Shown one piece after another: positions 1,516 through 1,712 of a stretch of 4,837 nt of DNA. Positions within the stretch are counted from its first letter, which is position 1; the number at the start of each line of letters is the position of its first letter. Location of the stretch: sequence record KM389299.1; one strand, given 5' to 3'. A program made the position numbers and the translations under genes. The notes below the pieces were generated by a model that ran no database searches, was not told where the DNA came from, and saw only the letters and a list, made by a program, of their open reading frames with translations. Source of the stretch: Escherichia phage CBA6.

Positions 1516-1584
1516 ATGGGAGCAGGCTACTTCTGAGAAATCAGGAGCGTACATGAGAAGGTTCGAGTCCTTCCTCCAATCCCA
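1516..1584 (+). ncRNA. tRNA-like module B: T-arm, acceptor 3' strand, discriminator and CCA; GAAA-tetraloop hairpin where an anticodon arm would be
   Basis: T-arm GAAGG-TTCGAGT-CCTTC (1557-1573). Acceptor 3' CTCCAAT (1574-1580), C, then CCA (1582-1584). Candidate 5' strand ATGGGAG (1516-1522) gives 6 of 7 pairs. Internal hairpin 1532-1536 with 1541-1545 has a GAAA loop. At 69 nt with no anticodon loop it is not a canonical tRNA. Confidence 0.35.
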
Positions 1585-1586
1585 AA

Positions 1587-1712
1587 GCCGTTATATCTGA
1601 CTGTCCAAAGGGGATAAGCTCCTGAGTAAGCAGAGGTGGGTTGCCTAAGTCAGATGGGATGTAAGGTCAGCGCTGGCCAAGCATTTGGGTTCGACTCCCT
1701 AAAACGGCTCCA
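1587..1712 (+). ncRNA. tRNA-like module C: T-arm, acceptor 3' strand and CCA; long insert containing an 8-bp helix (1595-1602 with 1649-1656)
   Basis: T-arm around GGGTTCGACTCCC (1685-1701). Acceptor 3' AAACGGC (1702-1708), T, CCA (1710-1712). Candidate 5' strand GCCGTT (1587-1592) gives 6 pairs and begins 2 nt after the CCA of module B. Assignment of the 5' end is uncertain. Confidence 0.3.

Follow-up and report, generated by a model that had tools for sequence, protein, structure and literature searches.

Which kind of RNA is made from phage DNA that carries the T arm, acceptor and CCA end of a tRNA twice in tandem, with no sign of an anticodon arm? The question is raised by a 4,837-nt sequence of Escherichia phage CBA6 (KM389299.1; the window, meaning the whole stretch analysed), in which a sequence-only reading had pointed out two such modules, B and C, at positions 1516-1712, and had taken them for tRNA mimics or minihelices, possibly substrates of tRNA-processing enzymes or parts of a larger RNA, rather than decoding tRNAs. 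In this window we see the tRNA island of a Kuttervirus (Ackermannviridae; CBA120/Vi01 type), and many phages of Salmonella and E. coli match it with 94-98% identity. The explanation that we favor, with a probability of about 55%, is that B and C are non-decoding small RNAs built on a tRNA scaffold, which are released by RNase P and 3′ trimming and whose foreign arms are the working parts.

The tRNA-like features of B and C are real and go beyond chance. The motif GGTTCRANTCC-N11-CCA occurred 8 times in the window, always on the + strand, compared to 0.00 expected from 200 shuffles, and the 8 matches were the five real tRNAs, B, C and a further module at 4608-4743. When compared with canonical tRNA (RF00005), B and C have in common with it the T arm with a UUCRANY loop, the acceptor helix, a discriminator, an encoded CCA and the 2-nt spacing of a tRNA array; unlike canonical tRNA, they have no D arm and no anticodon stem-loop. 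There was no D stem to present G18 G19 in either module, and the sole GG in the linker of B (CAGGCUA) is GA in most relatives. A 5-bp anticodon stem with a 7-nt loop was likewise found in neither of them; no anticodon loop was given by ARAGORN, Rfam or folding, and the folds showed a GAAA (B) or GCGC (C) tetraloop. None of the five tRNAs called by ARAGORN lay in 1490-1712, where the Rfam tRNA model had no match at E<=10, and the tmRNA (transfer-messenger RNA), Y RNA, GOLLD, ROOL and intron families were also without match (ARAGORN; Rfam at gathering and permissive thresholds). The best Rfam match at 1516-1712, to tRNA-Sec, reached 17.4 bits where the gathering score is 47. The module of bacterial Y RNA (YrlA) had no Rfam match at E<=1, and the termini of B and C form an acceptor with free CCA, not a long stem. 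The features first described for the two modules could all be read from the sequence at their positions, and their description as tRNA-like but non-decoding held, as ARAGORN recovered no tRNA at 1516-1712 and a standard cloverleaf was not found.

Module B is most likely a three-way junction of 95 nt starting at G1490, because the minimum free energy (MFE) fold of 1480-1584 picks the 5′ strand GAGCGGAG over that at 1516-1522, the block inserted in B-carrying phages opens with GAGCGGAG and closes with ...CUCCAAUCCCA-AA, and the layout recurs in a variant, B′, of phages KWBSE43-6 and bering. B′ has the same first 9 nt and 3′ strand as B and an unrelated interior, and it keeps the order of acceptor, second helix (P2) and T arm, with GGUGC/GCACC as P2 at the matching position and a T stem of GGAGG/CCUCC where B has GAAGG/CCUUC. 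The sequence-only reading was right on the T arm, the 7-nt acceptor 3′ strand, the CCA, the 34-nt linker and the GAAA hairpin; it had closed B at 1516, and its own caution that a 5′ acceptor strand might be mis-assigned probably came true here. Closure by AUGGGAG at 1516-1522, which contains one G.A mismatch (G1518.A1578), is possible, and closure at 1490 is better supported. Under either closure C1581 faces a G (G1515 or G1490), so that an 8-bp helix with a bare CCA would result, as in tRNA-His with its G-1:C73; B ends in ...CUCCAAU-C-CCA. B differs from tRNA-His in having 1-2 internal mismatches and no anticodon arm, and we regard this likeness as a lead and not a test.

The MFE fold of C was a four-way junction of 126 nt, in which an insert of ~91 nt, containing P2 with its 9-bp outer helix and a third helix (P3), stands between acceptor and T arm. 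The T arm, acceptor, CCA and 2-nt spacing had been correctly recognized before, with an insert of 90 nt and a helix of 8 bp; the acceptor starts at G1587, not A1586, since the preceding base is A, C or U among relatives. The term minihelix also undersells a four-way junction with two conserved non-tRNA arms. We aligned 10 distinct variants of C from Kuttervirus, Taipeivirus, Aglimvirinae and one unclassified phage, and standard pairs filled 95.8% of the pair cells in its four helices. Four pairs were altered on both strands and still paired, namely an acceptor U-A to C-G, U-A to C-G and C-G to U-A in P2, and A-U to G-C in P3; pairing and double changes of this extent were matched by 0 of 500 shuffles, and slid controls gave 0-1. 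A T stem of 5 bp is favored because in LHE287 CCCUA is changed to CCUAA, turning the U.U into U-A. The discriminator is U (A in AV101), and CCA is kept in 9 of the 10 variants. A covariance model of C scored 116-154 bits in relatives; its search of 21 loci, later extended to 7 metagenome loci, found only copies of C, and real tRNAs as well as the other tRNA-like modules reached 10-32 bits through the common T arm and acceptor.

B and C are separate cassettes, each of which is present or absent among Ackermannviridae. Both were found in 102 of the 198 phage records that matched 1500-1730 (ECML-4 and Sa157lw are 100% identical to the window there), and among the matches listed the remaining records mostly begin exactly at C (query 84-88) or within the T arm of B (B′, query 60). 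In many phages homology begins exactly at 1587. Where B is absent, GACAAU joins the closing hairpin of the upstream element straight to G1 of C. ChubbyThor carries neither B nor C, and there the upstream element and hairpin D, the next cassette, stand side by side. The cassette borders fall on the 5′ base of the acceptor and on the CCA. A domain with 85-91% identity to siphoviruses (ZX4) and the N4-like podovirus PhAPEC5 takes the place of the 5′ half of C in fGh-Ecl02. B is confined to a subset of Kuttervirus and almost invariant. Between genera no segment of the window is conserved as well as C, whose identity to Serratia phage IME250 is 97.8%, compared to 76-86% for the flanking segments and 83-88% for real tRNAs, and C together with D forms one block of 92.3% in Klebsiella phage K751. 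This could reflect selection or recent exchange of the cassette, and we argue for selection on the structure of C because of its compensatory changes. Pattern scans of IMG/VR for C and B gave matches only in Ackermannviridae genomes of ~154-162 kb. A metagenome scan for the 3′ half of C added one further Ackermannviridae contig, the other matches inspected being not C but a copy of a tRNA-Ala 3′ end beside a CRISPR array and apparent coding sequences, and BLAST of 1500-1850 against 5,426 E. coli genomes gave no match.

The closest known analogue of B and C in build is the species 1 RNA of phage T4, encoded by rnaC. All three are encoded in a phage tRNA cluster, on the strand of the tRNAs and beside a homing endonuclease gene, and rnaC is among the last genes of its cluster, a setting similar to that of B and C. 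RNA C has 139 nt, a canonical T arm (CCGGG-UUCGAAU-CCCGG), acceptor-like paired ends and two long hairpins at the places of the D and anticodon arms, and B and C likewise combine a T arm and paired termini with hairpins that replace the other arms. The likeness does not extend to sequence, since no homology between rnaC and C was detected and the C covariance model had no match in the T4 locus at E<=10. T4 rnaC also differs in that its CCA is not encoded (...CGUUUCGUA|CAAA) and its acceptor has two U.U pairs, and rnaD of T4, another gene for a stable RNA of that tRNA cluster, has no T arm. RNA C is an expressed stable RNA (PMC9697503) whose function is unexplained (PMC3014915, PMC9697503). B and C are a new form of a kind that is known but unexplained, that of T4 RNA C. 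T4 rnaD (L035 1554-1672, minus strand) contains CCCUGAGUAAGG, and the apical loop of C (window 1621-1632) reads CCUGAGUAAGC; GAGUAAG-type loops recur in modules of Mordin and wV8 and at window 2057-2066, which could be a shared motif or chance.

Directly 5′ of B lies an element that, judging from its sequence, derives from tmRNA, and which we consider the most surprising thing in the window. Its putative tag template reads AAAAAUAAUC-GCU AAU GAU AAC ACG UUC CUG GCA GUA GCU UAA UAG (ANDNTFLAVA), where the E. coli counterpart has AAAAAAUAGUC-GCA AAC GAC GAA AAC... (ANDENYALAA), and its 5′ arm runs colinear with the reverse complement of nt ~64-106 in E. coli ssrA, a segment that spans the 3′ half of pseudoknot PK1, the A-rich stretch that sets the frame, and the resume codon with codons 2-5 after it. 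Within the arm, GUUUUCGU is unchanged in nearly all phages compared and is GUUCUCGU in K751. Host ssrA pairs with the arm at least as well as, and usually better than, the element's own tag copy (duplex energies of -21 to -38 versus -12 to -18 kcal/mol; pairing scores of 28-41 versus 20-28). The element was found in 648 phage records (Ackermannviridae, Felixounavirus/Mooglevirus, Gamaleyavirus, Drexlerviridae-like siphoviruses, HK620 and SSU5), with tags such as ANDNAYLAVA, ANDNVFLAVA, ANEEMYLAVA, ANEEAYLMVA, ANDDLMLMAA and ANDDVVLMAA, and in 154 of the 5,426 E. coli genomes. It was annotated in none of the phage records examined, and no annotated feature lay under the match in 15 of 15 E. coli genomes among the matches listed. 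Strong promoter-like sites stand directly 5′ of the arm in five phages. HK620, in which the element lies in the pR′-tR′ leader, carries no tRNA-like module, nor does CS01; the case of HK620 argues that the element is independent of B and C. The element may block tmRNA or swap its tag. In the library searched, no paper connected Kuttervirus, HK620, Felixounavirus or Gamaleyavirus with tRNA-like RNAs or tmRNA.

A long-range helix, ACAACAGGUAAGAGCAU...GUGCUCUUUCCGUUGUG, recurs 3′ of the element in siphoviruses, HK620, N4-like phages and fGh-Ecl02, where it encloses inserts of 70-110 nt (L022 ~1415-1530 and ~1625-1710; L023 ~1415-1520; L024 ~1400-1490 and ~1650-1755; L007 ~2338-2425). Compensatory changes in this helix are seen in fGh-Ecl02 (CAUGUAAGGGCA/UGCCCUUUCAG), and the insert of fGh-Ecl02 and K751 has GGCUACUGAGAAAUCA in common with the interior of module B.

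How might such modules be made and used? In established tRNA biology, RNase P, the CCA enzyme, TrmA, TruB and the exonucleases that trim 3′ ends recognize the stack of acceptor stem and T arm. It is the D/anticodon half that is replaced, by P2 with a GAAA loop in B and by P2 and P3 in C. The co-directional RNA island would be transcribed into long precursors, host RNase P would cut 5′ of G1490 and G1587, and 3′ trimming would halt at the encoded CCA, yielding stable RNAs of ~95 nt (or 69 nt) for B and 126 nt for C, with the non-tRNA arms as the likely working parts. The cut by RNase P could also set the 3′ end of the upstream tmRNA-derived RNA, a place taken by a terminator in other phages, among them HK620. 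B and C are probably part of one transcript with this element, in keeping with the earlier suggestion that they belong to a larger RNA. In MALAT1 mascRNA and the tRNA-like RNAs of murid herpesvirus 68, a tRNA-like fold beside a non-coding RNA recruits tRNA-processing enzymes and sets the end of its neighbor, and mascRNA-type processing releases a small CCA-ended non-decoding by-product; these RNAs are eukaryotic, have CCA added after cleavage and show no homology to B or C. We favor the tRNA-scaffolded small RNAs because of the 8 motif matches against 0.00 expected, the absence of a tRNA call, the covariation of C, the layout common to B and B′, the cassette borders, the conservation of C, the retention of CCA next to a variable spacer and variable -1 bases, the similar CCA-ended modules of other phages and the likeness to T4 rnaC.

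Several observations weigh against this explanation. Fold z-scores were weak (-0.72 for B at 69 nt, +0.13 at 105 nt, and -1.35 for C), the acceptor of B has 1-2 mismatches, and its 5′ strand shows no compensation between B and B′. All four double changes of C come from the single phage GEC_N6 and represent one lineage, GEC_N6 loses the apical part of P2 (5 unpaired cells), and in PH4 the loss of one base at the discriminator removes the exact CCA register. The identity of C between genera could, as said, reflect recent exchange, and a literature search found no transcript data for Kuttervirus.

Decay would be another way to arrive at such modules: B and C may be recombination scars or decaying tRNA genes that lost the D and anticodon arms to insertions, serve no function and persist through fast turnover of the array. 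We consider this unlikely, although the island does offer a graded series from canonical tRNAs through module E (4608-4743; anticodon-like arm with an 8-nt loop), C and B to the CCA-less modules A and X, a canonical tRNA-Arg of Mordin occupies the site that in wV8 holds a variant without D arm and without an ARAGORN call, and both the unremarkable fold z-scores and the narrow range of the almost invariant B would be in line with it. C is nevertheless more conserved between genera than real tRNA genes, compensatory changes preserve the pairing of its non-tRNA helices, CCA and T loop are kept in both modules, B and B′ have one architecture with unrelated interiors, and T4 RNA C, built alike, is expressed and stable (PMC9697503). 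That B and C are interrupted genes, from which inserts are spliced out to leave decoding tRNAs, is highly improbable. The inserts do lie between acceptor and T arm and the termini are tRNA-like, but removal of any insert still leaves no 7-nt anticodon loop, inserts of 34-91 nt are far below group I intron size and match no Rfam intron family, and bulge-helix-bulge splicing is not known from bacteria. The modules might instead act as decoys, top halves of tRNA that are uncharged or can be charged and that soak up immunity or toxin enzymes of the host acting on the acceptor end or elbow of tRNA. Phage tRNA arrays have been linked to counter-defence against tRNA-targeting systems, and several distinct modules per genome with a canonical T loop and free CCA, or the tRNA-His-type G opposite C73 in B, would suit such a role; yet what the best known tRNA-directed defences cut is the anticodon loop, a part missing from B and C, and no result ties a defence system to them, so that we think little of its chances.

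The tmRNA-derived neighbor suggests a further role, in which B, C or both are stand-alone tRNA-like domains (TLDs) that bind SmpB, EF-Tu or a synthetase and either titrate the rescue system or aid the adjacent RNA. Besides the position of B and C directly 3′ of an element with a tmRNA-like tag open reading frame (ORF) and an arm antisense to host ssrA, the topology of B (acceptor, T arm and one closed helix) is that of the tmRNA TLD, and the T loop GGGUUCGACUCCC fits the tmRNA model. The TLD of tmRNA, including the TLD-only tmRNA of mycobacteriophage DS6A, resembles B and C in having an acceptor, a T arm and CCA without anticodon arm, and DS6A is a phage-encoded case, its likeness being taken from its description, not its sequence. 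The TLD-only RNA of DS6A has been reported, and tmRNA was inhibited by a similar molecule, which may have titrated SmpB (PMC4131195, PMC11915505). B and C differ from the TLD in that they lack the alanyl-tRNA synthetase identity G3:U70 with A73 (B has G.A, or G.A/C.A, with C73; C has C3-G70 with U73, A in AV101), B has no analogue of the D loop, and P2 is a closed hairpin in both modules, with no tag template in cis and no link to a tag frame by pairing. The Rfam tmRNA models (RF00023/RF04321) reached only the 13-nt T loop of C (1687-1699), with 10.5 bits against a gathering score of 47. The element also occurs in HK620 and CS01 without any tRNA-like module and in ChubbyThor without B or C, and pairing of B and C to the element or ssrA was not clearly beyond shuffles by RNAduplex (B not beyond them; C with ssrA marginal, z -2.3; we consider the comparison uninformative). 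We hold the stand-alone role to be rather improbable, and reject B and C as the element's own TLD on the grounds of the missing G3:U70/A73, the closed P2, the lack of strict co-occurrence and the lack of pairing beyond shuffles. An equally doubtful, wider version is a phage takeover of host trans-translation with B and C as working parts: the upstream RNA would use its 5′ arm to pair with nt ~64-106 of host tmRNA, mask the host tag template and present ANDNTFLAVA, and the anticodon-less, CCA-ended modules cut from that transcript would serve as competitors or tRNA-like partners, either at the ribosome or on SmpB or EF-Tu. A one-piece tmRNA ending at the CCA of C was rejected, as the acceptor of C pairs locally and covaries. 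A permuted two-piece tmRNA with module A as the acceptor piece, prompted by weak RF01850 and RF04321 matches, was also rejected, because A finds its pairing partner in a 5′ strand of its own and has neither CCA nor G3:U70, and no complementary 5′ strand follows downstream. In a weaker version of the takeover reading, B, C, T4 RNA C and similar modules of Felixounavirus and N4-like phages would form one unrecognized class of tRNA-scaffolded phage RNAs with a shared function.

Other tRNA-like modules were seen in the window and its relatives. Module A (1105-1172, or 1069-1172) has a T arm (UGUGG-UUCGAUU-CCACA), a D-arm-like hairpin and an acceptor without anticodon stem or CCA (...CCUCGUC-AACA); the SeKF_64 annotation calls it tRNA-Ala, and a comparable CCA-less 'tRNA-Ala(cgc)' lies 5′ of the tmRNA-derived element in St11Ph5. 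The stretch 851-928, tRNA-like by eye, combines a perfect acceptor of 7 bp (GCGUGAU/AUCACGC) and a canonical D arm UAGCUCAGAAUCAGAGAGCA with a degenerate T arm; GUUGG...CCAAC forms a hairpin at the place of the anticodon loop, and CCA is absent. In module E an acceptor (ACGAGAU/AACUCGU), an insert of ~75 nt replacing the D arm, a T arm and G-CCA accompany a 7-bp stem with the conserved 8-nt loop GUUGAUCU, and ARAGORN makes no call; its homologue in GEC_N6 (L006 4858-4986) preserves T stem, anticodon-like stem and acceptor through changes on both strands. A module of ~150 nt in CBA120 (L003 6117-6271) and ChubbyThor (L019 10359-10510) has a T arm, an acceptor (GAGUGUG/CGCACUC) with U-A in one phage versus C-G in the other, and the end ...UCCCA. 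The tRNA islands of Mordin, PhAPEC5 and St11Ph5 likewise contain anticodon-less modules ending in CCA, and PP35 has a CCA-ended T arm not called as tRNA by ARAGORN, possibly a similar module. A wV8 module with G3:U70/A73 was rejected as evidence for an alanine-type TLD, being a variant of the tRNA-Arg(UCU) of Mordin.

Table 1. Positions of the modules, the upstream element and other features in the 4,837-nt window
Feature	Position	Strand	Details
tmRNA-derived element (putative)	1299-1489	+	directly 5′ of B
Arm antisense to host ssrA nt ~64-106	1299-1341	+
A-rich lead, then resume codon GCU	1359	+
Tag ORF ANDNTFLAVA	1359-1388	+	two stops at 1389-1394
Pseudoknot-like part	1407-1438	+
Hairpin	1452-1482	+	then GAACAAU 1483-1489
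Module B, full cassette reading, 95 nt	1490-1584	+	MFE fold of 1480-1584; cassette boundary G1490; layout of B′
B acceptor-like helix GAGCGGAG / CUCCAAUC	1490-1497 / 1574-1581	+	tandem G.A, C.A mismatch
B P2 helix CGUGUAC / GUACAUG	1498-1504 / 1549-1555	+
Module B, assignment of the sequence-only reading, 69 nt	1516-1584	+	fold -19.4 kcal/mol, z -0.72; Rfam tRNA-Sec alignment 17.4 bits
B alternative acceptor 5′ strand AUGGGAG	1516-1522	+
B linker between acceptor and T arm, 34 nt (69-nt reading)	1523-1556	+
B hairpin CUUCUGA-GAAA-UCAGGAG	1530-1547	+	7 bp and GAAA loop
B T arm GAAGG-UUCGAGU-CCUUC	1557-1573	+	perfect
B acceptor 3′ strand CUCCAAU	1574-1580	+	then C1581, CCA 1582-1584
B-C spacer, 2 nt	1585-1586	+	AA, AC, UU among relatives
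Module C, 126 nt	1587-1712	+	fold; 10 distinct relatives; covariance-model matches
C acceptor GCCGUU/AACGGC	1587-1592 / 1703-1708	+	6 bp and A.A
C P2 outer helix	1594-1602 / 1648-1656	+	9 bp
C P2 apical part	1609-1646	+	loop AGUAAG
C P3 hairpin	1659-1684	+	GCGC loop
C T arm UUGGG-UUCGACU-CCCUA	1685-1701	+	one U.U
C discriminator U1709, CCA	1709, 1710-1712	+
Candidate promoter TTATCA-16-TATAGT	1187-1214	+	consensus match only; could start a transcript with the tmRNA-derived element, B and C
Cassette D, long inverted repeat	1711-1843	+	from the last base of C onward
tRNA genes	Met 3220, Trp 3536, Asn 3621, Gln 4525, Tyr 4750	+	ARAGORN, Rfam

The five tRNAs of the window, identified by ARAGORN and Rfam over its whole length, are all on the + strand and all have an encoded CCA. 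Inspection of ORFs in the window found no convincing one at ~660-2800; the CBA120 record leaves this region unannotated, and other records place "hypothetical proteins" of 30-70 codons there. Yersinia phage CAU_YEP3 is without the whole island, which is thus an accessory region. At the position corresponding to the candidate promoter (Table 1), K751 has TTGTCA/TATAGT. Four long near-perfect inverted repeats (1225-1307, 1711-1843, 1989-2124 and 2497-2590), with arms of 22-26 nt that are 39-92 nt apart, punctuate the non-coding island and may be processing sites or cassette borders; that at 1225-1307 sequesters one of two tandem GUUUUCG copies. The ORF of an HNH homing endonuclease (2816-3229) contains an in-frame TAA at 3035-3037 where CBA120 orf221 has TAT (Tyr), the sole difference across 414 nt, which is either a nonsense mutation or a sequencing error. 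By eye, the stretch GAUUAGCUG-GGAAGG-GGCCGAUGUCC-AGCGUGGCCCAG is common to the window (~4322-4372, inside its second non-coding stretch at 4149-4520) and N4-like PhAPEC5 (L023 ~1190-1245), where it forms a hairpin just 5′ of the tmRNA-derived element, and from its sequence it looks like another exchanged RNA cassette.

The species 1 and 2 RNAs of T4 have been known for about fifty years without an assigned function. A second large family of phages, the Ackermannviridae, carries tRNA top halves with foreign arms as conserved, exchangeable cassettes, and similar CCA-ended modules are found in Felix-O1-like and N4-like phages, which opens RNAs of this class to comparative and genetic study. Current genome annotation overlooks such RNAs or overlays them with spurious ORFs or pseudo-tRNAs. 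The tmRNA-derived neighbor, in turn, points to a possible phage strategy against ribosome rescue, or one using it, which is directly testable.

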